Below are positions 3,242 to 37,147 of a DNA stretch of 42,307 nucleotides, one piece after another; the first letter of the stretch is position 1; the number at the start of each line of letters is the position of its first letter. The notes beneath the pieces are model-generated. The model ran no database searches. It saw nothing but the letters and a program-made list of their open reading frames with translations, and was not told the DNA's origin. A program made the translations under genes and the position numbers. Source of the stretch: a virus (lineage: Duplodnaviria; Heunggongvirae; Uroviricota; Caudoviricetes); the IMG/VR virus record IMGVR_UViG_2541047692_000013; one strand, 5' to 3'.

Positions 3242-5182
3242 ATGTCTTATTTAAAATACAGAACAGATATTGATGGGCTGCGAGCTATTGCGGTTTTGCT
3301 GGTCGTGCTGTACCACGCAAACTTTCCTATTCATGGTGGTTTTATTGGTGTAGATGTTTTTTTCGTCATATCAGGATATCTCATTACCAACATCATATAT
3401 AAAGAGACTAAAAGAAATATTTTTTCATTCCTTAATTTTTACAAACGTCGAATAAAGCGATTGCTCCCAGCTTTTGCTTTTCTTCTTTTATTTTTATTTG
3501 TTTACTGCAAATTATATTTGATGCCAGATGAACTTATATCATTCTCTAAAAGTGCGGTATACGCTCTTCTTGGCATAAGCAATTTCTATTTTTTTAGTAG
3601 CACAGGTTACTTTAACTCAACCTCTTATGAACCGCTTTTACACACATGGTCGCTTTCCGTTGAAGAGCAGTTCTACATTGTATGGCCTTTCATCGTTTTC
3701 ATGCTCGCTCGGAACTCAGGGACAAAAAAAGCAATAATAATATCCTCATTACTATTTATTGTATTCCTTGGTATTTCACAGTATGGAGCGGTTAATTATA
3801 AAACAGCAGCGTATCTCCTACTGCCTTTTAGGTTCTTTGAGTTGCTCTCAGGTGCCCTACTTGCTATCTATAAAGATTCAATAACAAAACATCTGCGCCA
3901 CGGTTCTGTAATTTCACTGGTCGGCGTAATGCTGATTGTGTTGAGTTCATTATTTATAAATTCTAACACGCCATTTCCTGGGTTCACTGTTTTGCCTACA
4001 TGTTTAGGCGCTGTAATGCTTATTGCTGCAGGTGACTCATCCAAAAACTTCATTTCTAAAGTGCTGTCTTTAACTCCAGTTGTTTATGTAGGAAGAATTT
4101 CCTACTCTCTTTATTTATGGCACTGGCCTGTACTGATTCTTGCTGAATACAGGGGTATCGATCTTACGGCCTTAAATGCGACGGCGCTCATACTTATCGC
4201 ATTCATCATGGCAAGCATAAGCTATCACTTCGTTGAAAAGCCATTTAGGAAGGATTCGCTGCAATATTTCAGGACTGCATTTATAACCATCTACTTGATA
4301 CCATTAATAGTATCCGCTGCCTATGCAGCGTACATTTTAAAAAATGATGGTTTTCGCGCCAAAAGTTCAGAGTTAGTATCTGAATTAGAAGAGAGAAACG
4401 CGACAAATATTATGCGCCCACAGTGTATTGATAAATTATTTATCGGTAATGTAAATGACTGTCATCTTGGCGTTAATAAAGGCGAAGTAGATGGCGTGCT
4501 TCTTGGTGACTCCTTTGGTAATGCATATGCTTACTTTATTGATGAACTTGCGAAAGATGCTGGAATATCAATAACAGATACTACATATAGCTCAACACCT
4601 GTAATATCAGGAATTTATGTGCAGGATATCAGAAATAAGATATCTGACATAGATGCTAACCTGATAATGACATATACAAAAAACAGGCTGGAGTATGCAG
4701 CAAAACAAAAGTTCGCGATAATTTCCGTTTTTTGGGATCAGTACGGGCCACAAAATAATTACTTCCGTATCTTCGATAAAAACGGTGACGTATCGGAGAA
4801 TGCTTACCAGTTGCAATCTGAAGCAATAAAATATCTGCTGTCCAATGGCGTGAAAGTTTACATCATTGCAAGACCTTACCAGTCTATTGGCCCTGCTGCG
4901 ATAAACAAACTGCGCCAAATTAAGCTACGGCATGGGGATGTAACAACTGAAAAATATGAATACGGCGTAAAGAAAGATGATCGGATAGAATACAAGTTAA
5001 AGCAGGAGTTCCCTCAGATAACGCTAATCGATCCTAACGATGTACTTTGCCACAAAGGGGAATGTGATGCCATCGTGGATGGGAAGATCATTTTCAGAAC
5101 TGATGGTTCACACCTGAATGCTGTTGGAGCAAAAAAAATCGGGGAAGAGTATTTGAAAAACTACGCAAACCCATTTCGATAA
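3242..5182 (+). CDS. O-antigen acetyltransferase-like (acyltransferase-3 membrane domain plus SGNH-type C-terminal domain); serotype-conversion moron
   Basis: N-terminal multi-TM acyltransferase-3 signature (DGLRAIAVLLVVLYH..., FFVISGYLIT); long periplasmic C-terminal domain as in OafA-type enzymes; visibly AT-rich; converges on tailspike. Confidence 0.75.
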   Translation: MSYLKYRTDIDGLRAIAVLLVVLYHANFPIHGGFIGVDVFFVISGYLITNIIYKETKRNIFSFLNFYKRRIKRLLPAFAFLLLFLFVYCKLYLMPDELISFSKSAVYALLGISNFYFFSSTGYFNSTSYEPLLHTWSLSVEEQFYIVWPFIVFMLARNSGTKKAIIISSLLFIVFLGISQYGAVNYKTAAYLLLPFRFFELLSGALLAIYKDSITKHLRHGSVISLVGVMLIVLSSLFINSNTPFPGFTVLPTCLGAVMLIAAGDSSKNFISKVLSLTPVVYVGRISYSLYLWHWPVLILAEYRGIDLTALNATALILIAFIMASISYHFVEKPFRKDSLQYFRTAFITIYLIPLIVSAAYAAYILKNDGFRAKSSELVSELEERNATNIMRPQCIDKLFIGNVNDCHLGVNKGEVDGVLLGDSFGNAYAYFIDELAKDAGISITDTTYSSTPVISGIYVQDIRNKISDIDANLIMTYTKNRLEYAAKQKFAIISVFWDQYGPQNNYFRIFDKNGDVSENAYQLQSEAIKYLLSNGVKVYIIARPYQSIGPAAINKLRQIKLRHGDVTTEKYEYGVKKDDRIEYKLKQEFPQITLIDPNDVLCHKGECDAIVDGKIIFRTDGSHLNAVGAKKIGEEYLKNYANPFR

Positions 5183-5212: not shown

Positions 5213-7444
5213 TTAAGACTTCTTAAGGTACGACCATGTAACAGTGGTCGTACCGCTGCTGGTAATAGATATATCCCTTTCTGATACGCTTGCTGTGAGG
5301 AACGCCGCAGTCTTCAGCGGCTGGATCATTGCTGTCGTACCATCATAAATTACCAGGAATGAAATCGCGTAGTTTGCACCTCCGCCAGAAACCCACACGT
5401 TAACATCATAAACTCCCTCAGAGTTTGGCAAAGTAAAGAGCACGGACGCTACGTTAGCGTTGACCGATTTAGTACCCTTGTCGGTATAGACCGTGGGCAC
5501 CTGAAGCCCATTGGCATTTTTATTTTCTACATACCCACCAGCAATAACGCCTGACGTGATGCAGTTCGTGTAGTTAACGTTGCCGGTGCTCACAGTAGAG
5601 ATGGTTGGAGTTCCTCCGGCCGGAGCCTGGAACCGGCAGTTATCTGCATCAACCTGCGAGGTTACATCTGTGTGGATGAATGATGGATAGCCGGCCATTC
5701 CTTCAAAAGCGATCGGCGTACCATCGAAGCTATCTTTGCAGTTCAGCATCTTCACGCGAGATCCATTTATCGCGCGGTAAAAATCAACGATACCATTAGA
5801 ACCACCGAAAGATGTTTTCAACTTGTTGCCAGAACCAACTGCCCCGACTATCGAAACGGTTGAATTATCGAATGTCATAAACGCCACCTCAAGTGCTGAG
5901 TTGTTGTTTATAACGTTCGCCTCACCATCAAAACCGGAGATAAGAAATCCGTGACAATTCGAAAGGTAAATAGCAGACTGACCGATAGACGCGTTGGAGT
6001 TTACTGTCATCTTATCTGCTGCGCAGTTCGTCATCTGCCCTGAAAGGAGGTTTGTTAAATACCACGCGCATACGCCACCCATTACATAGCAGGACTCATA
6101 ATGGATCGTCGTGCCGGTGTTTTTGTAGAAACCACCGCGACTGCGACGCACCCATACATGCTCAAGCCTAGACATATAATTTCCAGAGTCGTCATATACT
6201 CCCCACCATGCCCCATCTATATCGACGTTTTTAATCCTTATCAAACCCGGCGATGTCTCACCACCATTTATAAGAATGCCAATTTTACCGTCGTTTGTGG
6301 CAGCATCTGTTGGATAGTCAATTCCATTCTGATCATAGAAAATATATAAATTCTCAATATTTCCTGAAGCAAAAGACTCTCCATAATGTAAGCACGCTTT
6401 ATTTCCAATTACGGAAATAAAAGTCCCTGATCTATTTATTATGTTATTACACTCACCGTATACAGTTGCAGATGTATTCATCTTAATAGTGTCATTAACA
6501 AAATATGCATTTCCACCTGGAATAAACACATTTCGTCCAGTGTTAATAGCTGCCTGTATTCCTGCGTAGTCAAAAGACTGGGTAAGCGATGTCACAAATG
6601 GATATACCATTTGTGCTGCTGTCAATGTTGAAAACACTTCGCTTAACTGATGAAGTTTTCCATCGCCTGTAGCACCAAAATCTTTTGCACTAATAAAATC
6701 GCTGTTTTTATCATGCTGTGTACGAATAAATGAACTAATGAAAGGTTGCTTCACCGAGATCAGAGCATCGCCTTTCCCGTCCTCGCCGCTGGCCAACTGG
6801 TTGAATACGTCAGCCGCCGTTCCTGAAGGCACAGGGAACGGAACGGGCTTACCGTTGGCGATGCCGATTATGCTTCCTTCAAGTTGAGCGAGAGGTGGCA
6901 GCGGATCGATATAAGAATCAGGAACACGGATTGTATGGTCGATATTCGATAAAACCGTACTGTCCACATAATTCTTTGTGGATGCATCCTGCGGGTTTAC
7001 CGGGTCTTTCAGGTTTCGAATATAGTTGTTCAGCGCGTTATAATAATTTGCCACGAATGACGGCTTGCGCAGCGCCAAGCTAAACCAACTTCGAACCTGC
7101 TGGATCAGCATCGTTAGCTTATCAAAAGCATCCTCATGCACTTCTGCAAAGAACTTCCCCTGATTACGCAAATCAGTTTCCTGCGTAACCGGGAGCTCTC
7201 GTGATATAGAAATCTGGTAACCGTTAGCTAACGCCTTCGACAGAATTACATTACCGCCGTTATATCCACCAGCCCCAGTGACAGTGTAATCAGTATCCAG
7301 AGCCAGCACAGCGATATTTTCGTCAAGGTCAACCACCTGCACTACCAGATCAGATTCCTTGAAAACCCTAAAGGTATAAGGGAATGAAGTCGTAACGCCA
7401 TTGCCTGTGTATTCGTTGTGGTCAACTTCGGTTGAGACCGTCAT
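5213..7444 (-). CDS. tailspike / tail fibre protein with T7-type N-terminal adaptor domain and beta-helix-like receptor-binding domain
   Basis: N-terminus (YTGNGVTTSFPYTFRVF...DLVVQVVD...LDTDYTV) matches the conserved podovirus tail-fibre N-terminal domain; 743 aa; Gly/Asn/Thr-rich repeats. Confidence 0.75.
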   Translation of the reverse strand: MTVSTEVDHNEYTGNGVTTSFPYTFRVFKESDLVVQVVDLDENIAVLALDTDYTVTGAGGYNGGNVILSKALANGYQISISRELPVTQETDLRNQGKFFAEVHEDAFDKLTMLIQQVRSWFSLALRKPSFVANYYNALNNYIRNLKDPVNPQDASTKNYVDSTVLSNIDHTIRVPDSYIDPLPPLAQLEGSIIGIANGKPVPFPVPSGTAADVFNQLASGEDGKGDALISVKQPFISSFIRTQHDKNSDFISAKDFGATGDGKLHQLSEVFSTLTAAQMVYPFVTSLTQSFDYAGIQAAINTGRNVFIPGGNAYFVNDTIKMNTSATVYGECNNIINRSGTFISVIGNKACLHYGESFASGNIENLYIFYDQNGIDYPTDAATNDGKIGILINGGETSPGLIRIKNVDIDGAWWGVYDDSGNYMSRLEHVWVRRSRGGFYKNTGTTIHYESCYVMGGVCAWYLTNLLSGQMTNCAADKMTVNSNASIGQSAIYLSNCHGFLISGFDGEANVINNNSALEVAFMTFDNSTVSIVGAVGSGNKLKTSFGGSNGIVDFYRAINGSRVKMLNCKDSFDGTPIAFEGMAGYPSFIHTDVTSQVDADNCRFQAPAGGTPTISTVSTGNVNYTNCITSGVIAGGYVENKNANGLQVPTVYTDKGTKSVNANVASVLFTLPNSEGVYDVNVWVSGGGANYAISFLVIYDGTTAMIQPLKTAAFLTASVSERDISITSSGTTTVTWSYLKKS

Positions 7445-7547
7445 GTTAAATCTCCAGATAGTCGCAGCACCCGTTGCGCCGCATATCTGGTTATTCTATT
7501 ACCTGAAAAACCATATATGGATGGAAAGAGTGTTAATGTGAGCAGAT

Positions 7548-7564
7548 ATTACCTTTCAGGTGAT
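7548..7564. promoter_or_regulatory. operator-like palindrome aTTACCtttcaGGTGAt (one mismatch) in tailspike / antirepressor-domain divergent region
   Basis: Same family as the other TTACC-N5-GGTAA sites; about 100 bp upstream of tailspike start. Confidence 0.45.
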
Positions 7565-7600
7565 TCGCAAAACGTGCTGGATAGCAAACAAATTATTTGC

Positions 7601-7620
7601 TACTGTATAAACATACAGTT
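7601..7620. promoter_or_regulatory. LexA (SOS) box TACTGTATAAACATACAGTT
   Basis: CTGT-N8-ACAG with AT-rich spacer; 17/20 match to E. coli consensus TACTGTATATATATACAGTA; overlaps a TATAAA -10-like hexamer; 20 bp upstream of ATG 7640. Confidence 0.65.
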
Positions 7621-7639
7621 ATTGCATGGAGAAGATAAG

Positions 7640-7897
7640 ATGCAGCAGTATCACTATCCACTGGAAGAGGGATTTACCGAAAGGATTCACACGCCGGGAG
7701 GCGTCAGGTCACTGGTGGAAGGATCGCACTTGATGAAATTACTCCGGGATCTCGATAAGGATGGATTTAATGTCGATGGCCCACTTGCCGAACTGACTGC
7801 ACTGATTAACTACGTCACCAGCTCACAGATGTCTATGCAGGATCTGCAAACACATCTCGACTATTGTGCCGAACAACTACGAAAACAAACCACATAA
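7640..7897 (+). CDS. small protein homologous to the antirepressor C-terminal domain (stand-alone domain); candidate SOS-inducible antirepressor
   Basis: ATG 7640 with SD ggagaag; about 40% identity, gap-free, to the C-terminus of the Ant protein at 9045..9755 (IH.P.GV..L.E.S.LM.LL..L..DG..V.G..AELT...QTH). ORF track start 7517 would put the LexA box inside the CDS. Confidence 0.5.
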   Translation: MQQYHYPLEEGFTERIHTPGGVRSLVEGSHLMKLLRDLDKDGFNVDGPLAELTALINYVTSSQMSMQDLQTHLDYCAEQLRKQTT

Positions 7898-7903
7898 AGA
7901 AAA

Positions 7904-7919
7904 GGCCGCAAGAGCGGCC
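7904..7919. terminator. bidirectional terminator hairpin between convergent genes
   Basis: Stem ggccgc/gcggcc with loop aaga; T-rich on the minus-strand side, A-rich on the plus side. Confidence 0.5.
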
Positions 7920-8647
7920 TATCGTTTCGCTTTGTGCTCGTCCCAGCACGTTTTGCACCATGCCATTAAGCCATCCGCATTTTGATTATTAGGGTAAAAG
8001 CTGGTTCGTTTTCTGCGGACATTACAAATTGGGCACCACTTCATATGACGTGTATTCTTTGGGCCATCTAGACACCTTGCACACCACTTAGTCAATCCAT
8101 CTGGATTTTTTGACGATTTCCTGAATTTTTCATATGGAAGGTTTATTCTGCATCGCAAACACTGCTTGCGGGCACTTGAAACTTCGTTAGCTGATTCTTC
8201 TTTTGACGGCGATACAGAAGGTATTCTTGCTGGCTCTGATACTGCCTGAGGTGCTTTTTTAGGTGACTGAGACGATACGTCATCACCAGGGAATCTTCCA
8301 TGATATGCCGGACACGTTGACACTCCAGGTGGAAGCTCTGCTGTAAATGGCTTTGGCTGAATCAGTTGCCTCTCTTTTGCTAACTCCTGCTGTTTATAAT
8401 ATGTCTGGATTACCGCGCTATCATAAGCAGGAGGTACGGAAATATTAGGCGCATTATCTCCCGTTTTTTGAAACTGAGTGGAGGTGTGTTCTATCACCTG
8501 TGTACGATTAATCGTTATCTCCCCATCTTCAGTCTTTATCGTTTTGTTACGATTAACGACCGTACGATCAGAGATCTTAGTCTTGTTCTGGTGAAGGACA
8601 TAAATAATCACCGCAACCACACCAACAACTATCCAGAAAACTTCCAT
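7919..8647 (-). CDS. membrane-anchored protein with two C-terminal CxxC...CxxC zinc-ribbon-like repeats; function unknown
   Basis: N-terminal TM helix (VFWIVVGVVAVIIYVL); repeats CLRCRINLPYEKF...WCARC and CPICNVRRKRTSF...WCKTC; perfect operator 20 bp upstream of start. Confidence 0.5.
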   Translation of the reverse strand: MEVFWIVVGVVAVIIYVLHQNKTKISDRTVVNRNKTIKTEDGEITINRTQVIEHTSTQFQKTGDNAPNISVPPAYDSAVIQTYYKQQELAKERQLIQPKPFTAELPPGVSTCPAYHGRFPGDDVSSQSPKKAPQAVSEPARIPSVSPSKEESANEVSSARKQCLRCRINLPYEKFRKSSKNPDGLTKWCARCLDGPKNTRHMKWCPICNVRRKRTSFYPNNQNADGLMAWCKTCWDEHKAKR

Positions 8648-8666
8648 TGCTTTTCCTCACAATAAC

Positions 8667-8683
8667 ATTACCTTAAAGGTAAT
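8667..8683. promoter_or_regulatory. operator palindrome aTTACCttaaaGGTAAt (perfect)
   Basis: Perfect TTACC-N5-GGTAA; immediately upstream of the 7919..8647 start codon on the minus strand. Confidence 0.55.
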
Positions 8684-8731
8684 ATCTTGCTTTCAGGTGA
8701 TCAAGCGTTAAACGCCACCAACCAAATACGG

Positions 8732-8776
8732 TTGATTTTTATATTTCTCCGCGTTTATCATTACCTTTGCGGTAAA
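8732..8776 (+). promoter_or_regulatory. sigma70-like promoter (TTGATT, 18 bp, TATCAT) with perfect operator TTACCtttgcGGTAA overlapping -10/+1
   Basis: -35 at 8732-8737, -10 at 8756-8761, operator core 8761-8775. Confidence 0.5.
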
Positions 8777-8888
8777 TTTACATCGCACTCCTCTTGTGCC
8801 ATAGTAATCGGGCACTGGCAAAATCCAGTGCCGGGATTGGCGTCCCGGGTTACTAAGTGGCGCATACCACGCCAGACGTGGTTTTTTT
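8768..8888 (+). ncRNA. candidate small non-coding RNA, possibly antisense regulator of the downstream antirepressor mRNA
   Basis: Promoter at 8732-8761 and intrinsic terminator (ccacg-ccaga-cgtgg plus 7 T, 8867-8888); only an ATG-less ORF spans it; internal hairpins; two segments (8837-8843, 8853-8860) are collinearly complementary to the ant leader (8954-8961, 8968-8974). Confidence 0.3.
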
Positions 8889-9044
8889 ATGCGTTAAGCA
8901 CAGCTATATCCGAATTATGGTGGGCTGGGCAGGGGTCCGAAAGGACGCCGGTACCACTTAGGCCGGTACGCCAACCTTGTCCAGTTCACCACCAGTAATT
9001 GGCGTTGCGGTGGTGATTAAAATCACTAAGTGGAGATAACCACC

Positions 9045-9755
9045 ATGGCTAATGCTCAAACTTCCATCTTCAAATTTGAATCTGTTAACCCTATCCGTTC
9101 CATCATTATCGATGGCCAACCATGGTTTGTAGCCCAAGACGTTTGTAGTGCGCTGCGTATCCAAAACGTCACCCAAGCACTTGAAAAACTGGATGATGAT
9201 GAAAGGTCTATGTTCAACATAGGGCATGAACATCGTGCAATTTTTGACAGCCGAGTAAAAGAGATCAACATCATCTCCGAGTCAGGCCTCTACACACTGA
9301 TCCTCAGATGCCGCGACGCAGTGACACCAGGCACTATCCCCTACCGCTTTCGTAAATGGGTTACAGGTGAGGTTCTTCCTCAGATCCGCCGCACCGGAAG
9401 TTACATTAAAAACTCGCTCCCGCAGGAAGAACGCATAAAGATGGTTGCCGACCAGGTAGCCAACGCCACGGCGTCAGCAGTAATGCAGGCGATGAAGATA
9501 GAGAACAAAACCTACAGTGCCCCACTGAAGCCCGGCTACCGCAGTCTGATTCACTCGCCGTCTGGTGTTCTCGGCCTGACGGAGAACTCACTGCTGATGA
9601 ATCTGCTGAACCAGTTGCAGGACGACGGGCATGATGTATCGGGCGCGGCAGCGGAGCTGACCACCATGTTCTGCTACATCGTCGGTGTGAGCAAGTGCCT
9701 GCGTGATATCCAGACCCACGCGGAGTATATCAACGACAAAGCAGGGTTCTTCTGA
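9045..9755 (+). CDS. antirepressor (Bro-N / Ant family)
   Basis: Start taken as ATG 9045 with SD ggag; N-terminal Bro-N-like motif (IDGQPWFVAQDVCSALRI...LYTLILRCR...FRKWVTGEVLPQIRRTGSY). Confidence 0.75.
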   Translation: MANAQTSIFKFESVNPIRSIIIDGQPWFVAQDVCSALRIQNVTQALEKLDDDERSMFNIGHEHRAIFDSRVKEINIISESGLYTLILRCRDAVTPGTIPYRFRKWVTGEVLPQIRRTGSYIKNSLPQEERIKMVADQVANATASAVMQAMKIENKTYSAPLKPGYRSLIHSPSGVLGLTENSLLMNLLNQLQDDGHDVSGAAAELTTMFCYIVGVSKCLRDIQTHAEYINDKAGFF

Positions 9756-9826: not shown

Positions 9827-9843
9827 ATTACCTCAAGGGTAAG
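9827..9843. promoter_or_regulatory. operator palindrome aTTACCtcaagGGTAAg (perfect)
   Basis: 60 bp upstream of the 9902 ATG. Confidence 0.55.
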
Positions 9844-9901: not shown

Positions 9902-10534
9902 ATGAGAACAAATACAACAAGAAAAGCGATGCCATACATTATCCCAGAAGCAGATTTCGATAGAAAACTGAACATGTCTGAGAAGAACACTAGTCACACC
10001 GAAAGCTACTTAGCGAAAGGTGTGGTTGATTTCGTTCTTCCGGGATTCACAACACCTTATGGTTATCGCCTTGTAAAATCTTGTAATGGCGATCATTACA
10101 GAATGATTACTACCAGCGATACTCCAGAAACGGTGTATGCGGTTAAGTTAATCTTTCGGGAAGATATCGTCGAAGCCAAAAGAACATGTACGCAGATCAT
10201 GGTATGGCGTACGCCTAATGTTATTCATGACCGTGCTGTTCATGGTTTGCCTCAGATTTTTTTTCAGTTCTTCCTAGAGCAATATGCGATCGTTGTATCT
10301 GATGAGCAACAAACAATCGATGGGAGAAGATTCTGGGAAAGAATGATTTCTTGGGCTATAAACACCCCAGGATATAATGTATACGTTTCAGATGGCTCTG
10401 AAGAAGATAGACCTCTTAGCTTCATGACATCATGGGATGATTTCTATAGCCAGTGGGCTGATTTCTGTTGGGGCAGTGATAAAGATGTGCATACCCACAG
10501 ACTACTGGTTATAAGCAAAGATAAACTGCATTAA
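9902..10534 (+). CDS. hypothetical protein (moron, no recognisable domain)
   Basis: ATG 9902 with SD gggagga; 210 aa soluble protein; AT-rich relative to virion genes; own operator upstream and terminator downstream. Confidence 0.55.
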   Translation: MRTNTTRKAMPYIIPEADFDRKLNMSEKNTSHTESYLAKGVVDFVLPGFTTPYGYRLVKSCNGDHYRMITTSDTPETVYAVKLIFREDIVEAKRTCTQIMVWRTPNVIHDRAVHGLPQIFFQFFLEQYAIVVSDEQQTIDGRRFWERMISWAINTPGYNVYVSDGSEEDRPLSFMTSWDDFYSQWADFCWGSDKDVHTHRLLVISKDKLH

Positions 10535-10836: not shown

Positions 10837-10977
10837 TTATGACAAGCCTATGTATCCTGCTACACCAGATAATATCAAAATAACTGCAACAGCAAATTCG
10901 CCATCGTCAATGATACATTTACGGTTCATAACGCCAAGTGCAACAAGCGCAAACACAACAAGAATAAAAGCAATCAT
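10837..10977 (-). CDS. small hydrophobic membrane protein (46 aa), not in the ORF track
   Basis: ATG (complement of 10975-10977) with SD aagga 6 nt upstream, overlapping the stop of the preceding virion gene; translation MIAFILVVFALVALGVMNRKCIIDDGEFAVAVILILSGVAGYIGLS; stop TAA at 10837-10839. Confidence 0.45.
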   Translation of the reverse strand: MIAFILVVFALVALGVMNRKCIIDDGEFAVAVILILSGVAGYIGLS

Positions 10978-10986
10978 TTCTCATCC

Positions 10987-13461
10987 TTATTGCGGAGTGA
11001 CATCCTGTGGTCGCCACCAGTATGTCTGGTTAAACTCTTTCTTCGAACGTTGCTCCATTTTACGCAAATAGCCTGGTGAAAAATACTCCTGCATCTGGTT
11101 AAAGATCATGTGATCGAGAGCCGCCTTCAAGTACCAGAGATTCGCACCTGGCATCAGCCCCTTCCCCAGCTTAACCAGATCACCACCAGTCTGCTCATTC
11201 TTCCCTTCCACAGCATTTAACGGTATGCCCTGAGCAATCTTCACTACGTCATCAACCAGACCAGCTACCGGGCCAAGCATCGACGCCAGCGCGCCGCTTC
11301 CGTACCTAGTGTGATCTGACAATAAAAAGTCACCGTAAAGGCCAAGACCACCACCTTTCAGTAGAGCACCAAGCCAAAATTTAGCAGCATCTTCTCCTGT
11401 CATCTCGCGATGATTACGACCAGACGCAAGGTCGTTAAGTTGCTGAGACAAAGCGCCAAGAATGGTCGTGCTGGCAATAAACGTCGCAATATATGCCGCA
11501 CGCCCACCAGCAGACGGCATACCCATAGCGCGTGACCAGTGACGCATAACCACCGAGATAGGGAACGATTTAAACAGGAAAACACTTCTCGTTAATTCAC
11601 CTTTCCATGTTCCACGCTGAATACCAGAACCGGTTATCAGTTGCTCACGTGCTCCCGGTGTAATAACAGCCATATCAACTTCTTCAGTTACGGCACCGAG
11701 CAGTTTACGCATTGCCTCAAATTTCACGCGTTCAGGCTCACCAAGATGTTTAACTGCTGAATCAGGGATACGCATAATGCTTTCCGGTGTCAGCATCGTA
11801 TTATTACCGTTCCCCCAGTCCTCCTGTTGCGCCAGCTTCCATACGCTCCAGTCTGTGTCAGTAATCCCTTTGCTTTTCAGGATACGAAAATCAGAGTCAT
11901 CGAGGCTACGAAGGTCTGGTGTCCGTGACACTACTTCTCCCAGGCTTCCCATCATGGTTACGCCATAGGCGCGCTTGTGCGCATCTGACCATGCTGTAAG
12001 CCCACTGGCACGCATTACCGCCGTTGCAGCCCAACGAGACACTGACGGCCCCATATTATCCATCGCCCAGCGGTTAACGCTGCCAAGTAGAGATTCCATC
12101 GCCAGACCAGCGCGGCGCGCCCGCGCAAGCTCAGTACGGTTCGTTGGGTCCATAGCTTCAAGCTGGTTGCGGAATAACTGGTTCATTGGAAGGTTGGTCA
12201 CCTTCGCAGACAGATACATGGTTCCAAGATCAGAGAACGATGACAGCAACGCGGATCCGAGTCTGCTGGCAACCAGCCAGTTGCGGATATTGTCAGACCA
12301 TCGCGCGATGTGCGGATTTGCTACAGGCTGTGTCTTTCCGGAAATAAAGTTGTACAGATTCTCTGTGTTGTTCGCCAGCCGCTCGACTTTACCGGTTTTA
12401 CTCGGGTTAGCTGTTGCCGTTTCTGCCTTCACCTGATCAAGAAGAGAGCGGAAAACATGATCGGGGTTTGGGCCATATGTTTCCACCAGTGCAATATCTT
12501 TACTGATACCTTCCAGGTGACCGACCATGATTTCCCATAGAGAGCGATCGCCATAAAGTTGCTGATATTGCAGATAGGAATCTGCATCTTTGAAATGTAT
12601 CTGTCGTGATGCATTACCACGGTTAGCACGTGCGCCGGAAATTCGCATTCCGGTATCAGTAAGCTTATTCAGCCCACCAGTAGCGATCGTGTTATAAGCC
12701 TCTCCAAGAAATGCAGACAACTCGGCATCGTTCATCAGTTGTCCATCGGCTCGGATATAATATTTGCGATCCAGCTTACCTATAACATCGCTAACCCACT
12801 TATCCTTTGATACCGCCCCAACCTTTTCCATAGAATGATGTTGAGGGATCCCCCAGTTTTCGAGATAGCCAATGTCCCCACCAGCATCATTAAACCGGCG
12901 GCGCAGCAGCTCTGTAACTTCTCTCCACGCCTTAGCACCTTTTCTTGCTTTAGCATTGCCAGTATTTTGCCCCCGCATTTCATATACCAGGTCACGTACG
13001 CCCGCTTCATCTTCAAACAGACCAAAAAAGCGAGGATCAACTGCTTCGAATGCCTCCTGCAATTGACTCAATGCATAATCACGGGTGGCTTTTGTTCTGG
13101 ATTCAACAGAGAGGAAATTAGATTTACCGTCTGCATTAAAAGCTATAGTACGGTTAAGAGCGCCAAGTTTCCCATCAGCCCCTTGATAGCTATTGATAAA
13201 TTTATCCAATCTCTGACGTGCAGCTATAGTGAGAGCCACACGACGTTTCTTTAATGCCGCTTCTCGCTGTAATTCTTCAGATGCCAATTGTGCTGCACGA
13301 TACAGCCGCTCTGACTCGGAAAGTTGTCGCCACGACATAGGGTCATCACGAGCAATGGAGCGCATATTGCGATAAATGCGGTCTTCAATGTTCTGTATTT
13401 CTCGCGCCGTTAACGTGCGCTGCGCCGCCTGCTGGACCGCTTGTATACATTCCTGTCTCAT
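10987..13461 (-). CDS. large internal virion / DNA-ejection protein
   Basis: 824 aa; last large gene of the virion operon, the position of podovirus internal core/ejection proteins; called by position and size only. Confidence 0.5.
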   Translation of the reverse strand: MRQECIQAVQQAAQRTLTAREIQNIEDRIYRNMRSIARDDPMSWRQLSESERLYRAAQLASEELQREAALKKRRVALTIAARQRLDKFINSYQGADGKLGALNRTIAFNADGKSNFLSVESRTKATRDYALSQLQEAFEAVDPRFFGLFEDEAGVRDLVYEMRGQNTGNAKARKGAKAWREVTELLRRRFNDAGGDIGYLENWGIPQHHSMEKVGAVSKDKWVSDVIGKLDRKYYIRADGQLMNDAELSAFLGEAYNTIATGGLNKLTDTGMRISGARANRGNASRQIHFKDADSYLQYQQLYGDRSLWEIMVGHLEGISKDIALVETYGPNPDHVFRSLLDQVKAETATANPSKTGKVERLANNTENLYNFISGKTQPVANPHIARWSDNIRNWLVASRLGSALLSSFSDLGTMYLSAKVTNLPMNQLFRNQLEAMDPTNRTELARARRAGLAMESLLGSVNRWAMDNMGPSVSRWAATAVMRASGLTAWSDAHKRAYGVTMMGSLGEVVSRTPDLRSLDDSDFRILKSKGITDTDWSVWKLAQQEDWGNGNNTMLTPESIMRIPDSAVKHLGEPERVKFEAMRKLLGAVTEEVDMAVITPGAREQLITGSGIQRGTWKGELTRSVFLFKSFPISVVMRHWSRAMGMPSAGGRAAYIATFIASTTILGALSQQLNDLASGRNHREMTGEDAAKFWLGALLKGGGLGLYGDFLLSDHTRYGSGALASMLGPVAGLVDDVVKIAQGIPLNAVEGKNEQTGGDLVKLGKGLMPGANLWYLKAALDHMIFNQMQEYFSPGYLRKMEQRSKKEFNQTYWWRPQDVTPQ

Positions 13462-23036: not shown

Positions 23037-23056
23037 GTGGGTCTGTTACGACCCAC
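23037..23056 (-). other. stable RNA hairpin immediately downstream of the major capsid gene
   Basis: 7-bp stem gtgggtc/gacccac with 6-nt loop, 16 nt after the MCP stop and before the next SD; no U-run. Confidence 0.4.
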
Positions 23057-23072
23057 AGGTTAATAACAGGCG

Positions 23073-27555: not shown

Positions 27556-27632
27556 CAGCAGGACGCCATTGCGATGGCTTCATGCTGTAAACCAGTACAG
27601 CCACGGAAGGCATAACTCATTGCTTCCAGTTC

Positions 27633-34257: not shown

Positions 34258-35034
34258 TTACTTGATAAATCCTGCCGCCTTTCCCCGCCTGTATTCCTCC
34301 ATCAGCCACTGCGCCGGTGTTATTCCCCCCAGGGTGGCGGCGTTAGGCATACACCCGAAACTTCGCCCTGGTGGATGGTAAACGTCTCTCCCTGTGTCCG
34401 GAGGTGTACTCATGGGTTCTGGCTTTGCCTGTATGCTGATCACCGGATCGGGTATCTGCTGTCCGGAAGCCACCTTTTTCGCCCAATCATCGAGCAGCCT
34501 GCGCGCGTGTTTCTCAACCTCAATCTCGCTAAGCTGGCGCTGATACATTGCACGGCGGGTATCACATACGACCCAGTACATAACCGGATGTCGCCACGGG
34601 AATCTTTCGGGACCACCAGGATATAAACTTTTTTCCTTGCTGTACCGGTGAAACTCCGCCATCACATCGTCAATGGTGACGCCAAGAACCATCTTGCTGT
34701 CTTTGCACCACTTGATGAATTGCCCAGGCGACGGCCAGAACGGAGATTCACTGGCGCGGGCGTGGCGCATACCAGCGTTAACCTGTTCCATTGTTGTGAT
34801 CCCATTCTCCAGAAACGCAAGCATCCATTGCTTACGGAATTCATTAAGTTTGTTCTGCTCCCTTATGGTCGAAACGCTTGCAGGAAATGCAGCCTGTAAC
34901 TGGACAAATAGTTCATTGAAAATTCTAGCAACCTGCTCCTTTTTGCCATTGCTGTCACGCCGCTCTTCATGCACAGCAACACCATGCTCACGTAAGCGAT
35001 CGTACTCATTGAGAAGTTCTGGAGTTGATTTCAT
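34258..35034 (-). CDS. replication protein, lambda P-like helicase loader
   Basis: Strong motif match to lambda P: FPAS...EQNKLNEFRKQWMLAFLENGITTMEQVNAGMRHAR...PFWPSPGQFIKWC. Confidence 0.75.
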   Translation of the reverse strand: MKSTPELLNEYDRLREHGVAVHEERRDSNGKKEQVARIFNELFVQLQAAFPASVSTIREQNKLNEFRKQWMLAFLENGITTMEQVNAGMRHARASESPFWPSPGQFIKWCKDSKMVLGVTIDDVMAEFHRYSKEKSLYPGGPERFPWRHPVMYWVVCDTRRAMYQRQLSEIEVEKHARRLLDDWAKKVASGQQIPDPVISIQAKPEPMSTPPDTGRDVYHPPGRSFGCMPNAATLGGITPAQWLMEEYRRGKAAGFIK

Positions 35035-36177: not shown

Positions 36178-36408
36178 TCATGAGTAGAAGAAGTATGCCA
36201 GTTCTGCTTTTGAGCGCAGCCATTGTCTTGTTTTACAGGCTTTAAAAAGCCCATTCATCAATACTTTACCTGGCATTTTGCGCTTACCTGTTAAGTGAGT
36301 CTGGATATAGTGACTCGTCGTTCCGGCTTCCTGTGCGAAGGCTTCACGCTCATCCGGAGTAAGTGCAAGCCAGTGCTTTTTGAAATCGAAATGTCCGTTA
36401 TCGCTCAT
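36178..36408 (-). CDS. Cro-like HTH regulator
   Basis: 76 aa; HTH (REAFAQEAGTTSHYIQTHLTG); divergent from the CI-like gene across the operator cluster; first gene of the leftward early operon. Confidence 0.6.
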   Translation of the reverse strand: MSDNGHFDFKKHWLALTPDEREAFAQEAGTTSHYIQTHLTGKRKMPGKVLMNGLFKACKTRQWLRSKAELAYFFYS

Positions 36409-36443: not shown

Positions 36444-36508
36444 TTCACCCATAAGGTAACAAAAATCAAGGATAGTTACCCATGAGGTGCATTTACCTGT
36501 TGGGTAAT
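36444..36508. promoter_or_regulatory. tripartite operator in the cro / cI-like intergenic region
   Basis: Three sites: TCACCcataaGGTAA (36445-36459), TTACCcatgaGGTGC (36476-36490), TTACCtgttgGGTAA (36493-36507); a minus-strand TTGATT -35-like hexamer lies among them. Confidence 0.6.
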
Positions 36509-36562: not shown

Positions 36563-37147
36563 ATGAAAAGTATCCAGGACGTCCGCAGGCAAAATCTCAA
36601 CGACTTGATCGACCGTGAATTCAATGGTGTTCAGACGCGGATGGCAGAAAAACTTGGAACTCAGGCAAATCTGGTAAACCGCTGGGCTCTTGGCAAGAAG
36701 GTTATCGGCGACCAGGTTGCGCGAAAAATTGAAGCTGCCGCCAATAAACCACGTAACTGGCTTGATATCGATCGCTCGCTTTCTCAGGAAGGTTTTCAGC
36801 CTGTCGGCCCAAGCGACATTGGTCAGCTGGCGGCTCACAACCTGGAACGCTGGATGAGCGAAAGCCGCGACCTTTCAACTCAGGGAAAACTTCACCGCGC
36901 ATCCGGCGTCGCCCAGGTGACAATCAGCCGCCTGTTAAACAATGAGGTCAGTGTTTCCATTTCCACCCTGGAGAATGTTGCATCAGCATTCGGGCGTCAC
37001 GGCTATGAATTACTGATTCACCCGCACGACCCTGCGACCATCAACTATGACCGCTCGCGCTACGCATTGTTACCCGAAACCGAGAAAGCAAAGATCGAAA
37101 GTTACATTGAATTTGTCATCAACCAGAACGAAAAAAACAAACAATAA
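36563..37147 (+). CDS. CI-like repressor with two tandem HTH (XRE-type) domains and no peptidase/autocleavage domain
   Basis: 194 aa; HTH-like segments at about residues 20-45 (VQTRMAEKLGTQANLVNRW) and 110-140 (ASGVAQVTISRLLNNEVSVSISTLENVASAF); no Ala-Gly/Ser-Lys LexA-type cleavage module seen. Confidence 0.55.
   Translation: MKSIQDVRRQNLNDLIDREFNGVQTRMAEKLGTQANLVNRWALGKKVIGDQVARKIEAAANKPRNWLDIDRSLSQEGFQPVGPSDIGQLAAHNLERWMSESRDLSTQGKLHRASGVAQVTISRLLNNEVSVSISTLENVASAFGRHGYELLIHPHDPATINYDRSRYALLPETEKAKIESYIEFVINQNEKNKQ

Follow-up and report, generated by a model that had tools for sequence, protein, structure and literature searches.

Two predicted antirepressors with a common Ant-type domain in an epsilon15-like prophage of Escherichia coli

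The stretch of DNA analysed here (42,307 nt, hereafter the window) represents an E. coli prophage of the epsilon15/phiV10 type (Uetakevirus), relatives of which are found in pathogenic strains (O157 and O103 hosts). Its lysogeny switch probably consists of a repressor of the SPC32H type, Rep, and two antirepressors that share a single Ant-type effector domain. One is an 85 aa protein (7640..7897, + strand) composed of this domain alone; the other is a 236 aa protein (9045..9755, + strand), in which a Bro-N domain and a linker precede an Ant-like C terminal domain (CTD).

The short gene, Rep and the operator-like palindromes

The product of the short gene matches chain E of PDB 5D50 ('Anti-repressor protein') over residues 2-85 (phmmer, E = 5e-48), and is 89% identical to that of the SPC32H ant gene by tblastn (85 aa against 86 aa); it also matches phrog_450, a PHROGs family of 'unknown function' that is matched by the long protein's CTD as well. 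These results identify the gene not as a new one, but as an orthologue of the already-known SPC32H-type ant, and the first-pass annotation's proposal of a minimal antirepressor is borne out by the structure of that orthologue having been solved with its repressor (PDB 5D50). We take entries 5D50 and 5D4Z to represent the SPC32H Ant/Rep switch of Kim & Ryu (2013, J Virol) and Kim et al. (2016, PNAS).

The ATG of the short gene is preceded by a GGAG Shine-Dalgarno sequence, 8 nt upstream, and by a LexA (SOS) box, CTGTATAAACATACAG, 22 nt upstream (7603..7618). With its flanks, TACTGTATAAACATACAGTT, 17 of 20 positions fit the E. coli consensus. The SPC32H ant gene is reportedly under LexA control, and both half-sites (TACTGTAT and ATACAGT) are kept upstream of it; boxes with one mismatch precede the short homologues on contigs L008 and L054. 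Across the window CTGT-N8-ACAG forms three boxes only, at 7603, 23043 and 27585, and none is present near the long gene between 8650 and 9045. Small LexA-controlled antirepressors, through which SOS induces an antirepressor instead of repressor cleavage, are also known in the form of Tum of phage 186, GfoA and GfhA of the Gifsy phages and AntC of N15; a profile search with the Ant domain, which matched only 62 cluster representatives among 1.84 billion, detected no sequence relationship to any of these. On its 3' side, the short gene converges with a gene encoding a 242 aa protein, and the GC-rich hairpin between them (7903..7920), with runs of T on both sides, looks like a bidirectional terminator.

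The presumed target of both antirepressors is a 194 aa two-domain helix-turn-helix protein (36563..37147, + strand), residues 1-190 of which match chain A of 5D50, 'Repressor' (phmmer, E = 4e-42). It shares 100% identity with the repressors of phiV10 and ZX5, and 41.8% with SPC32H Rep. Three TTACC-N5-GGTRA palindromes (36445..36507) separate it from a divergent cro-like gene (36178..36408, - strand), and are the putative main operator cluster; an equivalent arrangement is present in SPC32H at 34390-34451. The motif is 13-fold enriched in the window, having about 19 sites (38 strand matches against 2.9 expected), and these cluster at rep-cro. One further palindrome, TTACCTTTCAGGTGA (7549..7563), lies between the divergent tailspike gene and short ant, at a position also kept in SPC32H, and is probably a Rep operator. 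Hence operators are not specific to the long gene. The first-pass annotation had placed the two genes under different controls, and this holds insofar as the short one has a LexA box and the long one structured RNAs and palindromes, but not in assigning operators to the long gene only.

Several features are common to the window and SPC32H: the short gene is orthologous, has the same LexA half-sites and lies between the tailspike and injection-protein genes, Rep is homologous, and TTACC-N5-GGTAA palindromes occur at equivalent places. However, the SPC32H Rep is just 42% identical to that of the window, and SPC32H has the short Ant only, whereas the window has, in addition, a Bro-N protein whose Ant domain is 40% identical. 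Among complete E. coli genomes, the short gene is present in 529 of 5,426, and the pair of short and long genes in about 9-10%. In every E. coli match listed the short gene is labelled 'hypothetical protein', an annotation that can now be corrected at scale to SPC32H-type short antirepressor.

The shared domain and its N terminal partners

BLASTP aligns residues 2-79 of the short protein (7640..7894) with residues 155-232 of the long one (9045..9752) with zero gaps, 31 of the 78 positions being identical (40%) and 56% positive (E = 2e-15). This reproduces the ungapped relationship, at about 40% identity, described in the first-pass annotation, and the blocks listed there (IH-P-GV, LM-LL, DG, AELT and QTH) are all present; many of their residues do not vary across the short and long families, in which only about 13-15 positions are invariant. 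The Smith-Waterman score is 159; when the short protein was shuffled 5000 times, scores averaged 26.9 +/- 4.6 and never exceeded 63, and shuffling the long protein gave 26.6 +/- 4.3, so that z = 29-31 and none of the 10,000 shuffles in total attained the observed score. Given this excess over shuffled controls, the BLASTP E value, and the independent matches of the short and long proteins to the same PDB chain and PHROG family, it is exceedingly improbable that the similarity reflects chance or composition.

The N terminal portion of the long protein is a Bro-N domain (Pfam PF02498; residues 17-112, 9093-9380, + strand), scoring 71.5 bits against a Pfam cut-off of 25.6 (E = 9.6e-20). The Ant-like CTD (residues 155-232, 9507-9740, + strand) matches 5D50_E over 77 residues without gaps, at about 40% identity (E = 2.2e-13), and the protein also matches phrog_130, 'anti-repressor Ant'. 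A Pfam search of both window proteins gave no match to P22_AR_N (PF10547). The Ant domain itself has no model in Pfam or NCBIfam; among domain libraries, only PHROGs has one. In the AF2 model of the full-length long protein (pLDDT 70), Bro-N is confidently predicted (pLDDT 84-89), whilst confidence is low from residue 121 onwards, including the linker, and lowest at 141-160; the best Foldseek matches to the PDB were the Ski/Dachshund and baculovirus Orf22 N terminal domains, none of them significant (E >= 0.02). The CTD modelled by itself (pLDDT 73) is mainly one long helix accompanied by short helices. With these monomer models, of low to moderate confidence, Foldseek did not recover 5D50, and the CTD-only model gave no PDB match at E < 1. 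Monomer models say little about an obligate oligomer; the Ant-domain homology is drawn from the sequence comparisons.

The first-pass annotation interpreted the short gene as a duplicate of the long protein's CTD that had become independent. The DNA encoding the two Ant domains is 48% identical in register, and just 35% identical at third codon positions, which are saturated; hence the divergence is old, and this, along with the synteny of the short gene alone, rules out a recent duplication within the genome. Nor does the proposed direction hold, as the short gene is part of the conserved core, adjoining the tailspike gene in every phage relative examined, and it is the long gene that is an accessory insertion. 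The relationship is instead one of modular shuffling rather than local duplication, since the same CTD is joined to five different N terminal domain families. As judged from the cluster-representative search and E. coli annotations, Ant-like CTDs are fused to at least five such domains: Bro-N, AntA, Rha (Phage_pRha), ORF6N and P22_AR_N. The P22_AR_N fusion occurs in the close relative TL-2011b, as a third Ant-domain protein, where a sar RNA and a gene for an Arc-like repressor are its neighbours. Genes in E. coli genomes that cover CTD DNA of 92% identity or higher are variously annotated as BRO-N, 'phage antirepressor Ant' and ORF6N. In a distant Uetakevirus-like contig, the isrK and C4 RNAs seen in the window recur ahead of a Rha-CTD protein, which adjoins a short Ant. 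No Rep homologue was found within 10 kb either side of the Rha-CTD gene of contig L008; in these genomes Rep is ~14 kb from ant. A protein homology search in which the query was the CTD alone found just 25 proteins, all of them short or partial.

P0138 is a natural hybrid, with a short-type N terminal half (27 of 34 positions identical) and a long-type C terminal half (33 of 46), which lies behind a LexA-like box and is the sole Ant-domain gene in the 10 kb locus examined. Four 95 aa 'long-type' proteins (P0121, P0126, P0130 and P0133) at first seemed to stand alone; of these, P0130 is a 5'-truncated remnant, its frame running upstream into long-protein linker sequence with no C4 RNA nearby, and was discounted as a sign that small genes of the long type exist independently. 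In HEMP4, tblastn gave a third place for an Ant domain, which was absent from the 8 kb HEMP4 region inspected.

To our knowledge, the part that recognises the repressor is not known for most multi-domain phage antirepressors, whether of the Bro-N, AntA, Rha, ORF6N or P22 type. For the long protein, we infer from the homology to SPC32H Ant that the CTD binds Rep, and likewise infer its oligomeric state; the earlier suggestion that this is the repressor-engaging module is supported, and remains the most likely reading of the sequence data. With 40% of residues identical, conservation could reflect no more than the needs of the fold or of oligomerisation. If the CTD were a tetramerisation module only, any activity would lie in Bro-N, through DNA binding or some other target, and not be exerted on Rep via the CTD. 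The SPC32H Ant is outlined as a tetramer in PMC9638917, so some conserved positions must serve self-assembly; invariant positions across the two families are few, Bro-N-type antirepressors have entirely different C termini in many phages, and the predominantly single long helix of the CTD model would be typical of assembly domains. However, there would be no call for a module of this kind to occur solely in genomes with this Rep family, nor to retain 99% identity whilst N terminal domains are swapped, as seen in TL-2011b and ZX5, where the CTD is 99% identical to that of the window and the Bro-N half 69%. Furthermore, in P0138 the hybrid with a long-type C terminal half fills a LexA-controlled locus with no other Ant-domain gene nearby. 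We consider a purely oligomeric role unlikely.

The distribution of the domain points in the same direction as a Rep-engaging role. Of 50,697 phage records, 35 have a short Ant and 36 have Rep, the sets being equal but for one record, and in this collection the long-type CTD is confined to Rep-carrying records (E. coli, Enterobacter phage Tyrion and three Klebsiella records); this co-distribution is confounded by phylogeny, as almost all of these records represent one phage lineage. The Bro-N half is 45-55% identical to antirepressors of N15, phiKO2, Aaphi23, Kapi1 and others, none of which was matched by the CTD or by Rep. The long CTD and Rep lose identity to the window together, from 90-100% and 98.5-100%, respectively, through 79% and 78%, to 53% and 45%. 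Covariation is not simple for the short Ant, which keeps 86-89% identity when phages of E. coli and Salmonella are compared, whilst Rep is as little as 42% identical.

These figures also bear on whether the long Ant might instead be aimed at another resident prophage, whose Rep is a heteroimmune variant, as a form of cross-talk or an anti-immunity weapon. P1- and P22-type immI antirepressors are classic anti-immunity functions, Gifsy antirepressors acting in trans against non-cognate repressors have been documented, related phages have Rep variants 42-78% identical to that of the window, and the 40% identity of the two Ant domains leaves room for different specificities. However, the long CTD diverges in step with the Rep of the same genome, and a Rep-type palindrome beside the cassette promoter links the cassette to the resident Rep. 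In addition, the Bro-N protein ORF4 of vB_EcoP_ZX5, encoded at the equivalent locus by a close relative with a Rep 100% identical to the window's, acted on that phage's own lysogeny: its overexpression (GST-tagged) reduced lysogens from 1e9 to 1e6 PFU/mL, and lowered rep mRNA by 75% (PMC9782041). That study treats ORF4 as the only antirepressor, has the short Ant homologue annotated as hypothetical, and leaves the shared domain unmentioned (PMC9782041). A different target for the long Ant therefore seems improbable, and Rep of the same phage is the preferred one.

The RNA elements upstream of the long gene

The long gene belongs to a cassette of about 2.9 kb inserted beside ant, which the Salmonella relatives lack. 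An operator-like palindrome, TTACCTTTGCGGTAA (8761..8775), ends 2 nt before the -35 element of a sigma-70-like promoter (8777..8805, + strand; TTTACA, a 17 nt spacer and TG-CATAGT), which is a candidate on the basis of its consensus match; a second palindrome (8668-8682) faces the divergent gene for the 242 aa protein. The start predicted for this promoter, at about 8812, is the 5' end of a match to the isrK small RNA family (Rfam RF01394; 8812..8888, + strand), which at 67.7 bits (E = 1.3e-13) exceeds the gathering score of 50. It ends in an intrinsic terminator, detected by a terminator scan as a stem at 8866-8882 followed by a run of T.

Downstream lies a C4-type antisense RNA, as in the immI region of P1 and P7 (RF01695; 8913..8996, + strand), also above its gathering score (66 bits, threshold 45; E = 7e-12), the minimum free energy fold of which is a long closing stem with two inner hairpins. 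Its loop at 8954-8961 is complementary to CTAAGTGG at 9026..9033 (+ strand), overlapping the GGAG Shine-Dalgarno sequence of long ant, and a second copy of this target is found at 8853-8860; TTGGCGT, at 8837 and 8999, is complementary to 8968-8974. The a1b1 model (RF03163) scored 44.1 bits, just under its gathering score of 46.7. The leader as a whole (8812-9060) is predicted to be unusually stably folded (z = -4.8), with the Shine-Dalgarno and AUG region paired in a local hairpin. The leader's nearest open reading frame to the ATG at 9045 ends at 8998, and none stops at this start codon or overlaps it.

This arrangement resembles P1/P7 immI in having a C4-family RNA 5' of an antirepressor gene, repeated targets with complementarity to the C4 loop, including one across a ribosome-binding site, and a repressor-operator-like site at the cassette promoter. 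It differs in lacking a translationally coupled, icd-like reading frame, the C4 target instead overlapping the Shine-Dalgarno of ant itself, and in the antirepressor being composed of Bro-N and Ant domains; at the thresholds used, P1 was absent from both the Ant-CTD and Bro-N protein matches. The resemblance to isrK-orf45-anrP of Gifsy-1 lies in an isrK-family sRNA with its own terminator, followed by an antirepressor gene on the read-through transcript, but the stop/start overlap (AUGA coupling) of orf45 is absent from the window. Gifsy records were not present among the Ant-CTD matches in the phage collection; hence AnrP probably ends in a different domain. The P22 immI region (arc-sar-ant) is paralleled in TL-2011b, not in the window, by a classical antirepressor scaffold carrying the Ant CTD, whereas the long protein of the window has no P22_AR_N domain. 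As IsrK activates anrP translation in Gifsy-1, through the coupled orf45, whilst C4 represses the antirepressor in P1 (PMC4825925), the sign of the RNA control in this cassette is uncertain.

Two inputs to one repressor

The switch would thus be of the SPC32H type, in which a non-cleavable Rep is disabled by an antirepressor and not by RecA-stimulated cleavage. The short Ant would provide the DNA damage (SOS) input, because a LexA box lies in its promoter region. In SPC32H, an Ant tetramer is outlined as binding two Rep dimers and so breaking the Rep tetramer (PMC9638917); by orthology, a tetramer of the short Ant would bind two Rep dimers and take the Rep tetramer off its operators. The long Ant would present the same type of domain behind an exchangeable Bro-N, from an accessory cassette of the P1-immI and Gifsy-1 isrK type, in which the order is a Rep-operator-like palindrome at the promoter, the isrK-like RNA and its terminator, the C4-type RNA and long ant. 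In a lysogen, the long gene would be off twice over, given the operator-like palindrome at its promoter and the pairing expected between the C4 loop and its ribosome-binding site: transcription would be blocked via Rep, and translation via C4 and the leader structure. Its production would then call for the absence or ongoing inactivation of Rep, together with a shortage of C4. Such conditions might arise early after infection, when the long Ant would counter the immunity of a resident homoimmune prophage, or it might act as reinforcement once SOS-induced short Ant starts to remove Rep.

Mixed tetramers are conceivable where two proteins have homologous oligomerising domains, and several lineages have the short and long genes side by side, so the short protein might be a decoy or dominant-negative that co-assembles with the long CTD and limits the long protein. 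The decoy idea, also raised in the first-pass annotation, did not stand up: in SPC32H and epsilon15, both without the long form, the orthologous short protein is itself the sole functional antirepressor, and SOS control of the short gene fits an inducer rather than an inhibitor. A decoy role is accordingly very unlikely, and the short protein is better regarded as an antirepressor in its own right. A bolder possibility, of which we are doubtful, is that the SPC32H-type Ant fold is a portable, Rep-specific 'warhead' carried on at least five scaffolds, each with its own control circuit, and that the short and long proteins form mixed tetramers, as the domain tetramerises. Were this so, SOS and immI/RNA signals would be integrated within one mixed-tetramer complex, the N terminal domains could tether or redirect captured Rep, and recombination between paralogous domains on the same strand, as in the P0138 hybrid, would be a built-in route of cassette gain and loss.

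The homology of the CTD to a crystallised small antirepressor suggests a testable division of labour in the long protein, with the CTD engaging the repressor and the N terminal domain serving as an exchangeable scaffold. With DNA damage and an RNA-gated immI cassette as two inputs to one repressor, this prophage group would be a tractable model for how temperate phages combine induction and anti-immunity signals.

The two antirepressor genes and their shared domain

Both open reading frames lie where the first-pass annotation had placed them, at 7640..7897 (+), encoding an 85-aa product (short Ant), and 9045..9755 (+), encoding a 236-aa Bro-N protein (long Ant). Residues 2-79 of the former align with residues 155-232 of the latter, hereafter the C-terminal domain (CTD), without gaps and with 31 of 78 positions identical (40%; BLASTP, E=2e-15). 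Their Smith-Waterman score of 159 compares with approximately 27 ± 4.5, and a maximum of 63, in 5,000 shuffles done for either partner; the resulting z of 29-31, together with the BLASTP E value, shows that the similarity is real, as had been claimed. The DNA of the aligned stretches is only 48% identical, and 35% identical at third codon positions, hence the divergence between the two is old.

Short Ant matches, over its own whole length, chain E of PDB entry 5D50 ('Anti-repressor protein', the Ant of Salmonella phage SPC32H; E=5e-48), to which it is 89% identical by tblastn. Judged by this orthology with SPC32H ant, the short gene is not new but already known, and the suggestion that it acts as a decoy disagrees with the evidence, since its orthologue is an antirepressor. 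The SPC32H Ant tetramer binds two dimers of the repressor, Rep, breaking the DNA-binding Rep tetramer (PMC9638917, summarising structural work). SPC32H ant is flanked by a divergent tailspike gene on one side, and by genes encoding a small membrane protein and an 824-aa injection protein on the other; the window has the same tailspike neighbour (5213..7444, minus strand), with counterparts of the other two at 10837..10977 and 10987..13461. The upstream regions are also alignable, with the LexA-box half-sites TACTGTAT-N4-ATACAGT, the Shine-Dalgarno sequence and the palindrome TTACCTTNCAGGTRA all being kept.

The LexA box upstream of short ant (CTGTATAAACATACAG, 7603-7618) is one of only three matches to CTGT-N8-ACAG within the window; in SPC32H, LexA reportedly represses ant (Kim and Ryu, 2013). 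The other exact matches, at 23043-23058 (CTGTTACGACCCACAG) and 27585-27600 (CTGTAAACCAGTACAG), may be due to chance (three in total, against 0.57 expected). Starting instead at the ATG at 7517 would give a 126-aa product, but that frame would span the LexA box and differs from the crystallised form, and the 85-aa product is accordingly the correct call.

Long Ant is of a class already known and widely annotated. Residues 17-112 constitute a Pfam Bro-N domain (E=9.6e-20), and residues 155-231 match SPC32H Ant (5D50_E) without gaps (E=2.2e-13); in PHROGs, the whole protein falls in phrog_130 ('anti-repressor Ant') and its C-terminus in phrog_450, the family of short Ant. AF2 models, whether of long Ant or of its CTD by itself, were confident for Bro-N only, and Foldseek gave no match to 5D50. 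A literature search of limited scope found no publication linking short Ant to the long Ant CTD.

The repressor, its putative operators and the RNA cassette

The gene at 36563..37147 (+) encodes a 194-aa protein, residues 1-190 of which match the repressor of SPC32H (chain A of 5D50; E=4e-42). The phiV10 and ZX5 repressors have the identical sequence (100%), and SPC32H Rep shares 41.8% identity with it. Divergent from it is a cro-like gene (36178..36408; phrog_35). The palindrome TTACC-N5-GGTRA occurs at approximately 19 sites in the window (38 strand matches, against 2.9 expected), three of them in the rep-cro intergenic region and nearly all others in other intergenic regions. The 15-bp sites listed are at 2949, 3191, 7549 (before short ant), 8668 and 8761 (before the long ant cassette), 9828 (before the next gene), 27056, 30203, 30221, 34144, 34206, 36108, 36445, 36476, 36493, 37205 and 37268. 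SPC32H carries the same motif at equivalent places, despite the Reps being only 42% identical, and these palindromes are probably Rep operators. Their spread across the whole prophage resembles a many-operator regulon in the style of P1 C1, rather than a single immunity region. Short Ant shows 86-89% identity between the E. coli and Salmonella phages, whereas Rep is only 42% identical and the operator half-sites are the same; comparing the window with SPC32H, the presumed target is much less conserved than the antirepressor.

Upstream of long ant are an isrK-family sRNA (8812-8888; Rfam 67.7 bits, gathering score 50) and a C4-family antisense RNA (8913-8996; 66 bits, gathering score 45). Rfam also gave a match to the a1b1 target element, slightly below the threshold. 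A promoter-like site (8777-8805) would start transcription at the 5' end of isrK, and the palindrome at 8761-8775 stops 2 nt short of its -35; the isrK match is closed by a terminator (8866-8882 plus a T-run). The sequence CTAAGTGG, at 8853-8860 and 9026-9033, is complementary to the C4 loop (8954-8961), and at the second of these positions it overlaps the GGAG in the ribosome-binding site of long ant. The leader is predicted to be strongly structured (z=-4.8), with the Shine-Dalgarno/AUG region base-paired in a local hairpin. This layout is the same as that of P1/P7 immI and Gifsy-1 isrK-orf45-anrP, although the translationally coupled upstream ORF of those systems is not present before long ant. 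As C4 represses in P1, whilst IsrK activates in Gifsy-1 (PMC4825925), the sign of the RNA control on long ant is uncertain.

A constant C-terminal domain on exchangeable N-termini

Relative to SPC32H, an additional stretch of approximately 2.9 kb separates ant from the small membrane-protein gene in the window; it contains a gene for a 242-aa protein, the RNAs, long ant and a gene for a 210-aa protein. The 242-aa protein (7919..8647, minus strand; phrog_6762), encoded between the two ant genes, is membrane-anchored and cysteine-rich, having an N-terminal hydrophobic segment, C-terminal CxxC repeats and weak matches to Stc1, endonuclease VII and Lar-like zinc ribbons; the Rep-type palindrome at 8668 precedes its gene. 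The 210-aa ORF (9902..10534, +; phrog_1349) directly follows long ant, with a Rep-type palindrome (9828-9842) in front, and its position is occupied by a YafO-toxin module in phage TL-2011b and the related contig L054. The insert is variable among relatives: HEMP4 lacks the 242-aa gene, and TL-2011b, in which it is annotated only as a misc_feature, has additional genes.

The window is a prophage of E. coli, and its ant region is 100% identical in strains SCU-116, MS20673 and AH19K002. The short gene is present in 529 of 5,426 complete E. coli genomes, labelled 'hypothetical protein' throughout the matches listed, and long-type CTD DNA in 470. Among the 50,697 records of a phage collection, short Ant was found in 35 and Rep in 36, the sets being identical except for one record; the long-type CTD was found in E. 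coli members, Enterobacter phage Tyrion and three Klebsiella records, and in no Salmonella member of the collection, SPC32H and epsilon15 included. In phiV10 (NC_007804.2, 19554-20224) and the O157 typing phages the long ant CTD match is in two pieces, annotated as two features, and some well-known relatives may therefore have a defective long antirepressor. A 183-aa variant of long Ant (P0160) lacks residues ~137-189. An apparent stand-alone 95-aa 'long-type' protein (P0130) was rejected as a truncated remnant: it derives from a 5'-truncated long-type ant at 5652..6288 of contig L004, beside an AlpA-like gene and bordering an unrelated integrated element (primase/DUF927, SSB) of Raoultella/Klebsiella-type contigs. 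CTDs hence persist also as fragments.

P0138, encoded at 5001..5255 of L054, is a natural hybrid: its N-terminal half is of the short type (27/34 identical) and its C-terminal half of the long type (33/46), with the crossover near the DG motif. Its gene is at the LexA-controlled locus, behind a LexA-like box and beside the tail gene, and the long cassette was not found nearby; this fits the expected product of a deletion-type recombination between two same-strand paralogous domains.

The long proteins of TL-2011b and ZX5 are 69% identical to that of the window in the Bro-N half, and 99% in the CTD. A third Ant-domain protein of TL-2011b (6510..7454, minus strand) has a P22_AR_N N-terminus and a CTD 88% identical to that of the window; with the adjacent sar RNA (7456..7523; Rfam 44.8 bits) and Arc-like gene (7527..7694) it forms a module of the P22 immI type, the antirepressor of which ends in an SPC32H-type Ant domain. 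Contig L008, which is more distant but Uetakevirus-like, carries isrK and C4 RNAs ahead of a gene for a Rha-CTD protein; directly adjoining this gene is that of a short Ant homologue (60% identity), preceded by the palindrome and by a LexA box with one mismatch. CTD DNA of at least 92% identity underlies E. coli genes annotated BRO-N, 'phage antirepressor Ant' and ORF6N. Across 1.84 billion cluster representatives, a profile search detected the Ant domain in only 62 clusters; in many of these the protein stands alone, at 82-96 aa, and longer members are fused to Bro-N, AntA, Phage_pRha or ORF6N.

The Bro-N half of the window protein is 45-55% identical to antirepressors of N15, phiKO2, Aaphi23, Kapi1 and others, none of which is among the CTD or Rep matches. 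The identity of the long CTD to that of the window drops alongside that of the accompanying Rep: in E. coli the figures are 90-100% for the CTD and 98.5-100% for Rep, in Tyrion 79% and 78%, and in Klebsiella 53% and 45%. Taken together, eight lines of sequence comparison suggest that the CTD is the immunity-specific part, which engages Rep, and that the N-terminal domain is an exchangeable scaffold. The earlier proposal of the CTD as the repressor-binding module agrees with this constancy and with the co-distribution of CTD and Rep; the description of it as duplicated into an independent small gene is not supported, given the same constancy across swapped N-terminal domains and the old divergence.

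An experiment in a relative, phage vB_EcoP_ZX5, is supportive: when ORF4 was overexpressed, the titre of lysogens fell from 1e9 to 1e6 PFU/mL, with a 75% drop in rep mRNA, in a report that mentions neither the short Ant homologue nor the shared domain (PMC9782041). In ORF4 a Bro-N domain is combined with the near-identical (99%) CTD, the ZX5 Rep is that of the window, and the ZX5 short Ant homologue is annotated as hypothetical.

A putative switch with two inputs

Two inputs may converge on a single repressor. Upon DNA damage, LexA would leave 7603-7618 and short Ant would be made, which, by orthology with SPC32H Ant, would strip Rep from its operators. In the lysogen, Rep acting at the cassette promoter would keep long Ant silent, as would C4 RNA and the leader structure at the ribosome-binding site. 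The protein would be made once Rep is absent or declining and C4 has become limiting; this could be upon infection, as anti-immunity, or in reinforcing an induction already begun. Rep binding by the long CTD, the way in which this domain oligomerises and when long Ant is expressed are all inferred. Two points appear to have gone unrecognised: long Ant ends in an SPC32H-type Ant domain, and the module is portable, being joined to at least five scaffolds, within a prophage group found in around 10% of complete E. coli genomes.
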